32,000 nucleotides of DNA from Candidatus Heimdallarchaeota archaeon B3_Heim (GCA_003144275.1 NJBF01000005.1:90001-122000); one strand, 5' to 3'; positions 507 through 5,334 are shown, numbered from the stretch's first letter. The notes: generated by a model from the letters alone, not told the origin. A program made the numbers and translations.

Positions 507-1439
507 TTAAACAAATTTAATCTGTTCCCCTAACAATTCAATTAAGAGTTTAATTACAAAAAATGCAGTGATGTCTGCAGTATCAAACAGGGGGTTATAT
601 TCTACAATATCCCAGCTAAAATTTTTCCCAGGAGGAAGCGCATTAAAGATTCCCAAGAGTAACGTAACTAAGTCCCGACTAGTAAGTCCGCATGCTACAG
701 GATTACCGACTCCAGGAGCAAAACTCGGATCAAGGACATCTAGGTCAATTGAAATATGAAAATACTGATGTTTTGAGGCCAATTTCTGAATCAAAGAAGT
801 TCCAAAATCAAATAAATTTGCTTGATACTGAAGGGAGGATGTAGAATACAATAGCATATCTTTTTGCTTTGCGTATTCGACCTGTTCGCTTAAAAAATCA
901 CGGTATCCAAGTATAGTTGCTCCGTCAAAGGTTTGTAGCTCAGAGAGTCTTTTGAGCGAACACGCATGAGAGAAACGAGACTCATTTACTTCATCATAAA
1001 GGTCTAAATGTCCATCAATGTAAATAATATGCACAGGAATGTTTTTATTCTCGAACGCTTTTCCTACGCCAATAGTAATACTGTGATCACCTCCCATTAT
1101 AAGAAAAGGTTTTTGAAAAGAAATTAGATCAGTTACACCTTCGCTTACGCGTCTTAAACTTTTTTCAATATCGGTATTAATAATTCCAATATTGCCCCAA
1201 TCTTTAAGACGAAAATACCTTGTTAAATCTATCCCTTTTTCTGAAACACACTCAAAATTTTCTGATTGAAGTATTCTTCTTAACGAATTTGGACCAAAAC
1301 GGGCTCCTGGACGATAAGACGAGGAAATATCTAACGGAACTCCTATTAAATTATAGTTTGGGATTTCGTCCTTCCAATCATATTTAATAAGCCCACAAAA
1401 TGATTGTGGTTGATGAGATACAAAATCTAGATTACTCAC
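507..1439 (-). CDS. speB: Agmatinase / ureohydrolase (arginase family)
   Basis: RPGARFGP, GGDHSIT, DGHLD and SIDLDVLDPSFAPGVG metal-binding motifs are intact. GTG start. Confidence 0.9.
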   Translation of the reverse strand: MSNLDFVSHQPQSFCGLIKYDWKDEIPNYNLIGVPLDISSSYRPGARFGPNSLRRILQSENFECVSEKGIDLTRYFRLKDWGNIGIINTDIEKSLRRVSEGVTDLISFQKPFLIMGGDHSITIGVGKAFENKNIPVHIIYIDGHLDLYDEVNESRFSHACSLKRLSELQTFDGATILGYRDFLSEQVEYAKQKDMLLYSTSSLQYQANLFDFGTSLIQKLASKHQYFHISIDLDVLDPSFAPGVGNPVACGLTSRDLVTLLLGIFNALPPGKNFSWDIVEYNPLFDTADITAFFVIKLLIELLGEQIKFV

Positions 1440-1549
1440 GAGGGATCACACAAAAAGACTTATCTAATACAAATATAAATAATATTTCCTGATGAGACTA
1501 TTCTGTATTGTAGTACCCCAGCTAAGTACAAGTAGGAGCCACTTAAGTC

Positions 1550-2836
1550 TTGCACTCAGAAAAAAAAAATATGGATGAGGAAAAGTATTTATTGCTTGAG
1601 TATCAAGAAAAAACACTATTTTTCAACGGATTGAACCTAGAGGAGCTTCTAAAGAAGTATAAGACACCATTATTCATATTTTCTCAAGAAATTCTAGAGC
1701 TACAATATAAAAAAATTCATGAAACATTTTCTTCTCTTAATACTCAATCCCTGAAGATTGCATTTTCAGTGAAATCTAACCCGCTCCCTGAAGTGGCTCA
1801 AACATTTATGGAAAAAGGTGCTGATTTTGAAGTTACTTCGATAGGAGAAATAAAACACGTTATTGCGAATGGAGGGGAACCAACTAAGATTATATTCACT
1901 AATATCGTTAAGGATAAAACAACGGTAAAGTACTGCCTAGAAAAAGGTGTTGGTTTGTTTGCAGTTGACTCTTGGAGTGATATGAAAAACATTGAGGAAG
2001 CTTGTAAGGCATTACAAATAAGAGCAAACGTTCTATTACGTGTAAATCCTGGTACACAACTGAATGATACTTTATTTTCATGCACAGGTGGGAATAGCAA
2101 AATTGGTATTCTAATACCAGAGACTTTCGAGGGAAAATCCCAGTTCAACAAAATTCTCGACCATTGTTTAAATTCTGAATGGCTGTGCTTTCAAGGTCTC
2201 CATGTTCATTTAGGGAGCCAAATTGTAAATTTAGACCAATACAGGGATGGAATGAGAAAAATAAGTCTTCTCATAACCCAAATCGAGGAGAGAGGTTTTG
2301 AAATTAAGATCCTTGATATTGGAGGAGGAATTCCTATACCCTATGGAGAAAAGAATGTACCACCAATCGAAAAATTCAAAGATGTAATTCAAGAGGAATT
2401 TAATGGTCAATTATCCTCTATTATACTAATCCTTGAGTCAGGAAGATATTTAACAGCCCCTGCGGGTGTTTTAGCACTTCAAATCTCAATAATTAAAGAG
2501 AGAGAATCTAATCTTAACATTGCTTGCGTTAATGGGAGTTTTTATAACACTATACCTGATGCTATTATCGCAGATTGGCATTTCCCAATTAAAAAGGTGA
2601 AAAAAAATATCAATACACCAATTATTCCTTACCGAATAGTGGGTTCATCTAATGATACTTTAGATTATTATAAAGGAGCAATAGAAGGAAATAACTTGGT
2701 TTTATTATCTAAATTAGAAGAAAAAGATTATATCGTGTTTTTACAGGCTGGAGCATATTCAATTTCTTTTAATTCAACGTATTGTATGGAAGAAAGACCT
2801 TTAGTTTATTTTAATTTTAATACAAGTAAAAAATGA
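1550..2836 (+). CDS. Fold-type III PLP-dependent decarboxylase (ODC/DAPDC/ADC family); substrate uncertain
   Basis: FSVKSNP (PLP lysine), HVHLGSQ, LDIGGG, ESGRY and GAYS motifs. The usual CD/CE motif reads GSSNDTLD. True start may be ATG 1571. Confidence 0.88.
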   Translation: MHSEKKNMDEEKYLLLEYQEKTLFFNGLNLEELLKKYKTPLFIFSQEILELQYKKIHETFSSLNTQSLKIAFSVKSNPLPEVAQTFMEKGADFEVTSIGEIKHVIANGGEPTKIIFTNIVKDKTTVKYCLEKGVGLFAVDSWSDMKNIEEACKALQIRANVLLRVNPGTQLNDTLFSCTGGNSKIGILIPETFEGKSQFNKILDHCLNSEWLCFQGLHVHLGSQIVNLDQYRDGMRKISLLITQIEERGFEIKILDIGGGIPIPYGEKNVPPIEKFKDVIQEEFNGQLSSIILILESGRYLTAPAGVLALQISIIKERESNLNIACVNGSFYNTIPDAIIADWHFPIKKVKKNINTPIIPYRIVGSSNDTLDYYKGAIEGNNLVLLSKLEEKDYIVFLQAGAYSISFNSTYCMEERPLVYFNFNTSKK

Positions 2837-3933: not shown

Positions 3934-3954
3934 ATACGAGGAAATGAATAGTTA

Positions 3955-5334
3955 ATGCTCAAGGAATATCATATTGGTATTGATGATACTGATTCTCATG
4001 AAGGTATGTGTACAACATATTTAGCAACCCTAATCGTTGATTCATTGGAGAATCATGGAGTAGAATTCCTTGACTTCCCGAAATTAGTCAGATTAAATCC
4101 TAATATTCCGTATAAAACCAGGGGAAACGGTGCAGTTTCAATCAGTTTCATTTCAACGACACATAAAATAGAAGAAATTTGGAAAGAATGTATTAACCTT
4201 GTTAAAATCCATTCAGATATCAAAGCTGAGAATACTGATCCTGGGATAGTTCTGCAAATCGGAAAACCAGACCCAAGAACTAAAAAAGTTTATTATGAGG
4301 CACTTTATACAGTCATCTCATTAAAGAGCATGCAACATATCTTGAATAATAATTTTCAGGGACTTTACTATTCCATAAAAGAAGGAAGAGGATTAATCGG
4401 AGCATGTGCGGCCATTGGTGCGAACCTATATTCTGATTATACATATGAATTCATTGCTTACAGGGATCCAAGTATTAAAACATCTAAACGGATGATTGAT
4501 GAAAAATCGGTTATTGAGGCTGATCAATCTAATCCCTTATCATTTGGGAATTATGATTATGTACACAATCAATTAATGATTACTCCACATGGACCAGATC
4601 CAGTCTATGTCGGAATTAGGGGAGAAACTGCAAAATCAGTTATTCAAATGTGGAACGAGATAAAAATACTAGAAAATATTACTACGGTTATGTTGTTTAG
4701 ATCAAATCAACATACTCAGCCTCATTTTCCCAAGGAATTTACTGGAAAGGATATTAAACCATATTATTCTGTAAAAGTTAGAGGAGTTGTGGATTCGACC
4801 CCTCATTTGATTACTGGTGGGCATGTTATAGTTTCTATAGTTTCAAATGGAAAAACCGTAAATTGCGCGGCCTACGAGCCGACTAAGAAATTTCGAAAAC
4901 ATGTAAGAGAATTGATTGCAGGAGATGAACTAATGGTCTATGGAGGGGTGAGACCAGCTTCTGATGAATATCCAATAACAATCAATTTGGAACAATTCGA
5001 GATTATTAAACTACAACAACAGATCGCACGAATTCCTTTGAAATGTCCTCATTGTGAAGGCGCGCTAAAATCTCTTGGACAGAACCAAGGATTTCGTTGT
5101 AAAAGATGTAAATATCAAATAGACAAAAAAGAAATTGGATTTCAATTTAAAAAGCGTGGATTGCATTCAGGAGTGCGATATGTCATACCAACTTGCGCAC
5201 AACGCCACTTAACTAAACCAACTTCGCGTGATGATAACCTGCAATTTCACTTGCCTTCAGAAGAAAGTTTTCAAGAGGAATTTCATGATTTTTTGAAGAA
5301 TCGAGAGAACTTATTAAAGCACCCTTTAATTTGA
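3955..5334 (+). CDS. tiaS: tRNA(Ile2) 2-agmatinylcytidine synthetase TiaS
   Basis: HIGIDDTD, RLNPNIPYKTRGNGA, TPHGPDPVYVGIRG, OB-fold AAYEPT, Zn ribbon CPHC..CKRC, RHLTKP. Confidence 0.95.
   Translation: MLKEYHIGIDDTDSHEGMCTTYLATLIVDSLENHGVEFLDFPKLVRLNPNIPYKTRGNGAVSISFISTTHKIEEIWKECINLVKIHSDIKAENTDPGIVLQIGKPDPRTKKVYYEALYTVISLKSMQHILNNNFQGLYYSIKEGRGLIGACAAIGANLYSDYTYEFIAYRDPSIKTSKRMIDEKSVIEADQSNPLSFGNYDYVHNQLMITPHGPDPVYVGIRGETAKSVIQMWNEIKILENITTVMLFRSNQHTQPHFPKEFTGKDIKPYYSVKVRGVVDSTPHLITGGHVIVSIVSNGKTVNCAAYEPTKKFRKHVRELIAGDELMVYGGVRPASDEYPITINLEQFEIIKLQQQIARIPLKCPHCEGALKSLGQNQGFRCKRCKYQIDKKEIGFQFKKRGLHSGVRYVIPTCAQRHLTKPTSRDDNLQFHLPSEESFQEEFHDFLKNRENLLKHPLI

Follow-up and report, generated by a model that had tools for sequence, protein, structure and literature searches.

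From where does an archaeon whose genome yields no PdaD obtain its agmatine, and is the same amine also spent on the hypusination of aIF5A? Almost all archaea need agmatine for AUA decoding; TiaS uses it to form agmatidine on tRNA-Ile2. The question is raised by four consecutive genes at positions 507 to 5,334 of a 32,000-nucleotide stretch, hereafter the window, from Candidatus Heimdallarchaeota archaeon B3_Heim (GCA_003144275.1 NJBF01000005.1:90001-122000). The genes encode an agmatinase-like ureohydrolase (UH), a fold-III decarboxylase dependent on pyridoxal 5'-phosphate (PLP) and here called DC, deoxyhypusine synthase (DHS), and TiaS. We propose, at a probability of roughly 0.55, that they form an agmatine-centred locus, in which a PLP-dependent arginine decarboxylase (ADC) replaces PdaD and stands beside a ureohydrolase for polyamine and hypusine supply, DHS and TiaS. 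A preliminary description of the window had read the locus as agmatine-centred, and this reading is supported by three results: DC is not the lysine-pathway enzyme LysA, it is the sole ADC candidate in the genome, and the cluster is kept within its family.

The four genes, their coordinates and the gaps of 110 and 21 bp given in that description agree with our map of open reading frames (ORFs) and our family scans. They and the relevant parts of DC, which has its ancestry among the diaminopimelate (DAP) decarboxylases (DAPDC), are as follows.

507-1439, minus strand: UH, arginase-family ureohydrolase, agmatinase-like (310 aa; PF00491, 201 bits)
1440-1549: divergent UH/DC spacer, 110 bp, A/T-rich
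1550-2836, plus strand: DC, fold-III (alanine-racemase-fold) PLP decarboxylase of DAPDC ancestry, proposed arginine decarboxylase (428 aa)
2528-2569, plus strand: specificity-helix segment V327-I340 of DC (VNGSFYNTIPDAII), from alignment to DAPDC
2642-2665, plus strand: GSSNDTLD motif of DC, G365-D372, from alignment
3016-3933, plus strand: DHS, deoxyhypusine synthase (305 aa; DS domain PF01916, 332 bits)
3955-5334, plus strand: TiaS, tRNA(Ile2) 2-agmatinylcytidine synthetase (459 aa; TCKD, FLD and Zn-ribbon domains)

A decarboxylase of DAPDC ancestry without the DAP-binding residues

DC matches both Pfam domains of its fold above the gathering score (Orn_Arg_deC_N, PF02784, and Orn_DAP_Arg_deC, PF00278), and it keeps the PLP lysine K75, the H218-x-GSQ motif, the glycine loop GGG 258-260 and E296-x-G-R299. 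K75, H218, G258-260, E296, R299 and Y403 are invariant in 45 aligned family members, as are D337 in the specificity helix and D369, which follows Asn368. The best PDB folds for the AlphaFold model of DC (pLDDT 91) are DAPDC and DOKDC (or DokD), the enzyme that decarboxylates D-ornithine and D-lysine, with TM-scores of 0.8-0.88. These enzymes share the fold of DC and are its nearest relatives in sequence, and all of their PLP-binding residues are retained in DC. Kinship with the eukaryote-type ornithine decarboxylase (ODC) was ruled out, as ODC matches reached about 47 bits vs 155 bits for DAPDC.

According to public annotation, DC should be the diaminopimelate decarboxylase of the organism. 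Its homologues are named 'diaminopimelate decarboxylase family protein', and its best NCBIfam, PDB sequence and fold matches are all DAPDC. However, on the best NCBIfam model, lysA TIGR01048, DC reaches only 230.7 bits against an equivalog cut-off of 297.9, whereas the control, an Asgard LysA of the Lokiarchaeial type in which the Arg/Tyr/CES motifs are kept, scores 433.7 bits. DC likewise stays below the cut-off of the DOKDC model (162 vs 700 bits). The helix that grips the distal carboxylate of DAP, 'DLIRPALY' in solved DAPDCs (within the pattern D-x-G-x-N-D-L-I-R-P-x-L-Y), reads 'NTIPDAII' in DC, where P336 and I340 replace the carboxylate-binding Arg and Tyr. Similarly, 'CE(S/T)GD' of the solved DAPDCs is 'NDTLD' in DC, which places D369 at the position of the DAPDC Glu, so that none of the three DAP-binding residues (Arg, Tyr and Glu) is left. 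In lacking the residues that bind the DAP carboxylate, DC resembles DOKDC; it differs from both relatives in having Asn for the catalytic Cys and in lying in an agmatine/polyamine context and not a lysine one.

The genomic evidence is consistent with these differences. Neither DapF nor LysW was found in the genome (3.95 Mb, 94% complete), DapB_N gave marginal matches only, in ORFs of 353-365 aa, and no fold-III enzyme of any kind was found in five near-complete sister genomes. The 'aminotransferase' upstream was considered as DapL and rejected, as it is a BioF/Kbl-family α-oxoamine synthase. Because of the lost DAP residues, the low lysA score, the missing DapF and LysW, the sister genomes and the identity of this neighbour, we regard the public label 'diaminopimelate decarboxylase family' as misleading with respect to the function of DC, and the assignment of DC as LysA as scarcely credible. 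The preliminary description had named a DAP-specific enzyme within a lysine pathway as a finding that would refute its proposal; the active-site residues, the lysA score and the failure to find DapF or LysW all speak against such an enzyme.

Eukaryote-type ODC motifs (YVNDGVYNTF and GPTCDALD) do occur in a second fold-III enzyme of 384-392 aa in three genomes of another Asgard family (f13; G104, G113 and G150, loci L079, L080 and L081), together with a true LysA and PdaD.

DC as the candidate arginine decarboxylase

In the genome of the window we found no PdaD (PF01862), no OKR_DC_1 enzyme of the aspartate-aminotransferase (AAT) fold and no SpeA; PdaD was also not found in 10 family members searched. 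The only SpeD domain in the genome scores above the equivalog TIGR03330 for S-adenosylmethionine decarboxylase (AdoMetDC; 82.8 vs 75.65 bits) and is fused to an aminopropyltransferase. DC is the only recognisable ADC candidate in the genome, which is what came of the search for pdaD suggested in the preliminary description.

The distribution of PdaD among the Asgard archaea fits a replacement. Motif typing of 32 Asgard fold-III enzymes gave types that are uniform within each family; the families are labelled f1, f2, f6 and so on, f1 being that of the window. Enzymes of the Asn-Asp type occur in f1 and f6, where PdaD was found in 0/10 and 0/3, and those of a Cys-Asp type with the Asp helix in f11 (PdaD 0/5) and f22 (0/6); in all four families the fold-III enzymes combine the Asp helix with a loss of the DAP residues. 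True LysA motifs characterise f13 (PdaD 34/40), f26 (3/3) and f21 (0/1), and a third, uncharacterised type is found in f2 (20/22). In the Asgard sample, PdaD looks to have been replaced by a fold-III enzyme, perhaps in two or three independent events, since related genomes are not independent of each other.

D337 and D369 are predicted to face the distal end of the substrate, an ODC-like solution for a cationic side chain. There is also a bacterial precedent, as short ODC homologues of the alanine-racemase (AR) fold that adjoin speB or speY proved to be ADCs by assay in several cases (PMC13625781, section 10). The characterised archaeal ADCs are pyruvoyl enzymes and one AAT-fold enzyme (PMC8503589); the earlier statement that they are usually pyruvoyl enzymes is correct, with that one exception. 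On the basis of the gene context, the acidic pocket, the lack of any other ADC type, the complementarity with PdaD and the bacterial precedent, we consider it on balance probable that DC is an arginine decarboxylase that replaces PdaD. Its proposed role, the supply of agmatine for TiaS and for polyamines, would be that of PdaD, with an unrelated fold and cofactor.

Looser contexts of relatives were also inspected. Among 80 loci of distant DC relatives surveyed for UH, DHS or TiaS neighbours there was one positive, in the Thaumarchaeota metagenome-assembled genome (MAG) AUK156 (L082:1128-3999), where a Cys-Asp-type relative of DC is followed by TiaS on the same strand. In two genomes, f22 decarboxylases lie 3-4 kb from a UH homologue. 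Both cases are in line with an ADC. Of three further homologue contexts none was informative, apart from a 3-kb contig on which a Heimdall homologue has fragments of guanidino-modifying enzymes next to it.

A SpeA-like long fold-III protein of 614-654 aa is encoded in 4/22 genomes of the genus (G204, G127, G062 and G201; L019-L022). These proteins score 328-366 bits on TIGR01273, below its cut-off, and two of the four genomes also carry the short DC.

Conservation of the locus

Near-identical homologues carry the names Hodarchaeales or Heimdallarchaeota, and the host is a Hodarchaeales archaeon (Heimdallarchaeia, Asgard). We count a single fold-III decarboxylase, a single DHS and four to five genes of the arginase family in its genome. 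DC orthologues (45-96% identity) are confined to the GTDB genus and family of the window and occur in 11/22 genomes. The order Kbl-like gene, UH and DC (divergent), DHS, TiaS, with or without a gene for a tetratricopeptide-repeat (TPR) protein, EMC3-like gene and TruD was identical in all six DC-bearing relatives that were fetched, the most distant of which has a DC of 45% identity. With these low copy numbers and the recurrence of the order in 6/6 relatives, the adjacency of the four genes is more than chance. In three relatives without DC, UH is directly divergent from DHS-TiaS. A tree of DHS and UH places these three together in a single clade (support 99/97) that is nested among lineages with DC, and the tree of DC agrees with it; DC was therefore ancestral to the family and was lost once in that subclade.

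Outside the family the arrangement is looser. Among DHS neighbourhoods fetched from 20 other Asgard families, DHS stands tail-to-tail with TiaS in three (f11, f12 and f22) and has UH directly upstream in one (an f13 genome), while 16/20 lack these neighbours beside DHS. The four-gene cluster is thus a family-level feature, and looser links between DHS and agmatine genes recur elsewhere in other arrangements. The preliminary description had made its proposal depend on conservation of the cluster, and the answer is divided: the cluster is kept in 6/6 DC-bearing relatives, but it is not Asgard-wide, and half of the genomes of the family lack DC.

Two side observations concern single genomes. In an f8 Asgard genome (G002:C61:8399-11305; L031), PdaD lies between two tandem DHS paralogues, which are possibly a SpeY-like pair. 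One DC orthologue (G181:C148:12795-14066) contains an in-frame TAG, which could be a sequencing error or the sign of an early pseudogene.

Points against the proposal and alternative explanations

Several observations weigh against the proposed locus and the role given to DC in it. Substrate specificity in this fold is unreadable from sequence, and ornithine or lysine would fit the acidic pocket as well. DAPDC and DOKDC, the closest relatives with a solved structure, both act at D-stereocentres, and the physiological substrate of DC could be a D-amino acid. The f11 enzyme scores above the lysA cut-off although it lacks the DAP residues, which means that model scores do not cleanly separate the types. 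In 2/5 Nitrososphaerales genomes a related Cys-Asp-type enzyme occurs together with PdaD; complementarity with PdaD fails there, and it is therefore claimed within the Asgard sample only. Moreover, 11/22 genomes of the genus lack DC and 9/22 lack any recognisable ADC, including a single-contig genome and one that is 99% complete. The DC-less loci examined (n=3) keep TiaS, and all 22 genomes keep arginase-family paralogues. As the DC-less genomes retain three arginase-family genes, a co-loss of canonical agmatinases with DC, which we looked for, is not seen. These observations mean that the family must have another source of agmatine, by uptake or through an unrecognised enzyme, and this makes the argument from DC as the only candidate weaker than it looks. 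As to the cluster, it was found in none of the 20 other Asgard families, and the whole neighbourhood, TruD and the EMC3-like gene included, is syntenic in relatives, so that conservation within the family alone is no proof of a functional linkage.

Some of these points would be explained if DC decarboxylated ornithine or lysine, giving putrescine or cadaverine, while agmatine came from elsewhere. D337 and D369 would suit any cationic side chain, half of the genus manages without DC while keeping TiaS (in the loci examined) and agmatinase-like genes, and related enzymes coexist with PdaD in some Nitrososphaerales. However, such a specificity would raise the number of genus genomes without an ADC candidate from 9/22 to 18/22. 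Where DC is present it always sits between the agmatinase-like gene and tiaS, the complementarity over Asgard families favours an ADC, and the bacterial ODC homologues beside speB turned out to be ADCs (PMC13625781). We therefore regard ornithine or lysine as an unlikely substrate, though a less unlikely one than any of the other alternatives weighed here.

A further difficulty for arginine decarboxylation lies in Asn368, which occupies the position of the general-acid Cys of the partner subunit (C360 in ODC, 'CES' in DAPDC, C387 in DOKDC). To our knowledge, that Cys protonates the carbanion after the loss of CO2 in every characterised enzyme of the fold. The pattern ND(T/S)(L/M)D with a strict Asn368 is seen in 28/28 aligned members of the clade and in family f6, and this strict conservation indicates that Asn368 is selected and not a product of decay. 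By analogy with other enzymes of the fold, normal decarboxylation may be slow or diverted in DC: either another group protonates the carbanion, or a slow enzyme suffices, or the chemistry differs. On an alternative reading, the exchange of Cys for Asn alters what DC does: it would then be a decarboxylase of very low rate, a producer of an aldehyde via decarboxylation-dependent transamination, or a non-catalytic regulatory subunit. ODC mutants C360A and C360S, described by Jackson et al. in 2000, are said to mostly transaminate, which we count in favour of such a change. In the related DOKDC, about 1% of the activity remains in the C387A mutant (PMC13294871), and the structure of C387S (PDB 9cpz, according to the entry title) trapped pyridoxamine 5'-phosphate (PMP) plus 4-guanidinobutanal. 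On the other hand, all other catalytic and PLP-binding residues (K75, H218, E296, R299, Y403 and the GGG loop) are invariant, which argues against a dead enzyme; the half-reaction to the aldehyde needs a recycling of PMP for which there is no evident partner; and as tRNA modification needs little agmatine, a slow ADC would do. An altered function is improbable in our view.

It is also improbable, and to a similar degree, that the adjacency of the four genes is inherited synteny without functional coupling. The flanking TruD, EMC3-like and Kbl-like genes are just as fixed in position, most other Asgard families lack these neighbours beside DHS, and DC, 179 bp from DHS, can be lost cleanly. Nevertheless, the four genes are consecutive, belong to one metabolite family, and are each single-copy or few-copy. 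Other pairings recur as well: convergent DHS and TiaS, UH with DHS, PdaD between two DHS genes, DC with TiaS in the Thaumarchaeota MAG, and DC near UH in f22. In addition, clustering of agmatinase with DHS has been published for Euryarchaeota (PMC5178350). We retain the agmatine-centred locus as the preferred explanation.

Ureohydrolase, deoxyhypusine synthase and the supply of polyamines

UH has all six Mn ligands (H119, D141, H143, D145, D232 and D234, in the motifs GGDHS, DxHxD and SxDxD) and appears to be an active Mn ureohydrolase. It scores 163.4 bits on the agmatinase SpeB equivalog TIGR01230, below the cut-off of 174.3. Of the three agmatinase-like paralogues that the genome encodes, it diverges most; those on contigs C86 and C10 score above the cut-off (192 and 198 bits) and lie in unrelated contexts. 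UH is thus not the only agmatinase of the organism, whose complement of guanidino-amine hydrolases is unusually rich. The further arginase-family genes are at C86:3717-4532, C10:59001-59807 and C60:1234-2049 of the genome (G000); two of them pass the agmatinase cut-off and one is weakly arginase-like.

DHS scores above the dhys model TIGR00321 (323.9 bits vs a cut-off of 304.25) and has the catalytic lysine K276 within EAVSWGK. The genome has no other DHS homologue, and this one is orthologous to the DHS of 188/201 Asgard genomes. On the model for bis(guanidino)-aza-nonane synthase (SpeY) it reaches 221.9 bits, below the cut-off of 500. Its protein substrate aIF5A is encoded on contig C57, adjoining NAD kinase. 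The TCKD, FLD and Zn-ribbon domains of TiaS (PF22641, PF08489 and PF23783) are all above the Pfam cut-offs, and the protein scores 387 bits on the NCBIfam equivalog NF040849, below its cut-off of 600. In a search for the TiaS substrate tRNA-Ile2 (anticodon CAU), ARAGORN found only 16-22 tRNAs in the MAG, with one CAU tRNA; the tRNA set is incomplete or intron-rich. A call of tRNA-Ile(UAU) at C80:45463-45543 was treated as a false positive, since its acceptor stem is mismatched and its D stem has 3 bp.

No speE or speD lies in the window: the first ten ORFs and ten of the larger ones among the rest gave no domain match, as the preliminary description had stated, and the genome-wide profile searches matched other contigs only. 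For the organism as a whole this does not hold. An ORF of 460 aa on contig C30 (G000:C30:36290-37672; L003:463-1845) encodes a BpsA-type aminopropyltransferase (PF01861) fused to a class-1b AdoMetDC. This BpsA_C-AdoMet_dc fusion is the only aminopropyltransferase and the only SAM decarboxylase of the genome, and it is present in 20/22 genomes of the genus; no SpeE-type spermidine synthase was found in the genome-wide search. With this fusion on another contig, spermidine-dependent hypusination is possible in the organism. The preliminary description had itself named speE or speD elsewhere in the genome as evidence against an agmatine-only route, and the C30 fusion is evidence of that kind. In the literature searched we found no paper on the fusion, nor on Asgard polyamine or hypusine pathways.

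On the preferred reading, DC, descended from DAPDC, would decarboxylate arginine to agmatine and so take over the role of PdaD, and the agmatine would feed TiaS for agmatidine on tRNA-Ile2. UH would release urea, either from agmatine or from a polyamine derived from it such as N1-aminopropylagmatine, itself the presumed product of the BpsA-AdoMetDC fusion, to yield putrescine or spermidine. DHS, whose role is assigned by family membership, would then deoxyhypusinate aIF5A with that polyamine as the probable donor. As the fusion is conserved in the genus, the simplest pathway would run from arginine to agmatine by way of DC, to aminopropylated agmatine or putrescine by way of the fusion protein and the ureohydrolases, to spermidine and, by way of DHS, to deoxyhypusine.

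A different use of the same genes, in which DHS takes agmatine directly and DC, UH and DHS form one pathway, follows either the Haloferax model or SpeY chemistry. The guanidinobutyl group would be transferred to the aIF5A lysine, or two agmatines would be joined to bis(guanidino)homospermidine, and the removal of urea by UH would finally leave deoxyhypusine or homospermidine. DC, UH and a DHS homologue are indeed the gene set of the bacterial ADC-speY-speB clusters (PMC13625781, sections 10 and 11), in which SpeY couples two agmatines and a specific partner ureohydrolase finishes the product (PMC13625781). The adjacency of UH and DHS survives the loss of DC in 3/3 relatives examined, the f13 genome has a UH immediately upstream of DHS, and in the f8 genome two DHS paralogues flank PdaD. 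In Euryarchaeota, agmatinase, aIF5A and DHS cluster, and Haloferax has an essential agmatinase-like gene (PMC5178350). UH is a divergent third paralogue below the agmatinase cut-off, which would be in keeping with a specialised substrate. Enzymes of the BpsA family are known to extend triamines, and a SpeE-type enzyme was not found in the genome. However, DHS scores as a canonical dhys (324 bits, cut-off 304) and far below the SpeY cut-off (222 vs 500), and it is a single-copy orthologue in the 188 Asgard genomes. AdoMetDC and an aminopropyltransferase are present, so that spermidine can probably be made. No DHS is known to transfer agmatine to aIF5A, and for Haloferax such a transfer is a proposal only. 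Furthermore, the DHS- or DC-linked ureohydrolases of other Asgard families are not specific orthologues of UH; they are nearer to the C10 paralogue, which leaves an orthology across families unsupported. That the single DHS of Hodarchaeales takes agmatine from an Asn-variant PLP decarboxylase, with UH finishing the product, is accordingly improbable.

Transcription and neighbouring genes

If the agmatine-centred locus is expressed as its spacing suggests, it comprises more than one transcription unit. The ATG at 1571 is probably the start of DC, in which case the divergent UH-DC gap widens from 110 to 131 bp. This spacer probably holds the promoters of both genes. The A/T-rich spacer of 179 bp between DC and DHS suggests that DHS has its own promoter. 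DHS stops 21 bp before the start of TiaS, and DHS, tiaS and the following gene are probably one transcript, judged by spacing only:

5336-6739, plus strand: all-TPR protein (467 aa), starting 1 nt past the tiaS stop

The TPR gene is seen in 5/6 DC-bearing relatives and is absent from G133 and from the DC-less G136 and G062, where the stretch is readable. An Rfam scan of window positions 1-9500, which include the UH/DC spacer, gave no family at the gathering threshold. The gene downstream of UH (window 1-351, minus strand; full gene L008:11663-12874) is the BioF/Kbl-family α-oxoamine synthase mentioned above, and it scores 434 bits on the glycine C-acetyltransferase model against a cut-off of 460. 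The remaining genes of the window are housekeeping genes, namely those for TruD, ribosomal proteins, FtsY, RpoB, a class I tRNA synthetase, AglB/STT3, the PolD small subunit and Cdc6.

Discussion

Parts of the proposed locus are known from other systems. The bacterial clusters of an AR-fold ADC with speY and a speB-like gene, e.g., in Rhodothalassium salexigens (PMC13625781), bring the same three protein families together, and in both cases the reading of a short fold-III decarboxylase as an ADC draws on its neighbours, an agmatinase homologue and a DHS homologue. In contrast to those clusters, the DHS studied here is the only one of the organism and a canonical dhys rather than SpeY, and TiaS is included. 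Their decarboxylase is an ODC homologue and an ADC by assay, whereas DC is derived from DAPDC, has Asn for Cys and is a proposed ADC. The euryarchaeal agmatinase-aIF5A-DHS clusters and the Haloferax volcanii model (PMC5178350) likewise link an agmatinase-like gene to DHS in an archaeon and share the idea of a link between agmatine and aIF5A modification. However, aIF5A lies on another contig here and the ADC candidate is a PLP fold-III enzyme instead of PdaD; Haloferax has no spermidine, whereas an AdoMetDC-aminopropyltransferase is present in our genome.

A third known system concerns the feeding of DHS. A route to spermidine via N1-aminopropylagmatine operates in Thermococcus kodakarensis and Thermus thermophilus. 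It is also mentioned in PMC13625781. Our genome encodes the ADC candidate, an aminopropyltransferase dependent on decarboxylated S-adenosylmethionine and a ureohydrolase of the agmatinase-like kind, and this would be the simplest feed for DHS. The differences are that the aminopropyltransferase is of the BpsA type and fused to AdoMetDC, not SpeE, and that there are three candidate ureohydrolases.

The clustering of agmatinase with DHS, the recruitment of AR-fold ADCs beside speB or speY and the dependence of TiaS on agmatine are therefore precedented. What is new is the presence of TiaS in one locus with the others, a candidate ADC that descends from DAPDC and carries Asn for the catalytic Cys, and the occurrence in Hodarchaeales; we found no paper describing the four-gene cluster. 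The locus is real and conserved. We consider it of moderate interest, with its value as a compact experimental test case, since four small soluble proteins would allow the use of agmatine by an archaeal DHS to be tested, a question that was raised in a 2026 paper. The conserved Asn368 is in addition a natural experiment on the control of protonation after decarboxylation in this fold.

If DHS uses spermidine, the finding is a useful re-annotation and a non-orthologous replacement of PdaD. A fold-III ADC derived from DAPDC, if true, would be a further independent invention among archaeal ADCs, one that is now annotated as a lysine-pathway enzyme. If, against our expectation, DHS uses agmatine, there would be an archaeal agmatine-dependent route to deoxyhypusine or homospermidine, and the spermidine-dependent DHS of eukaryotes would be a later specialisation. 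Such a result would answer the question, asked in the Discussion of PMC13625781, whether DHS proteins of both kinds, agmatine-dependent and spermidine-dependent, are encoded by archaea. In either case, the locus unites two modifications of the translation apparatus that depend on arginine-derived amines, in a lineage often placed nearest to the eukaryotes.

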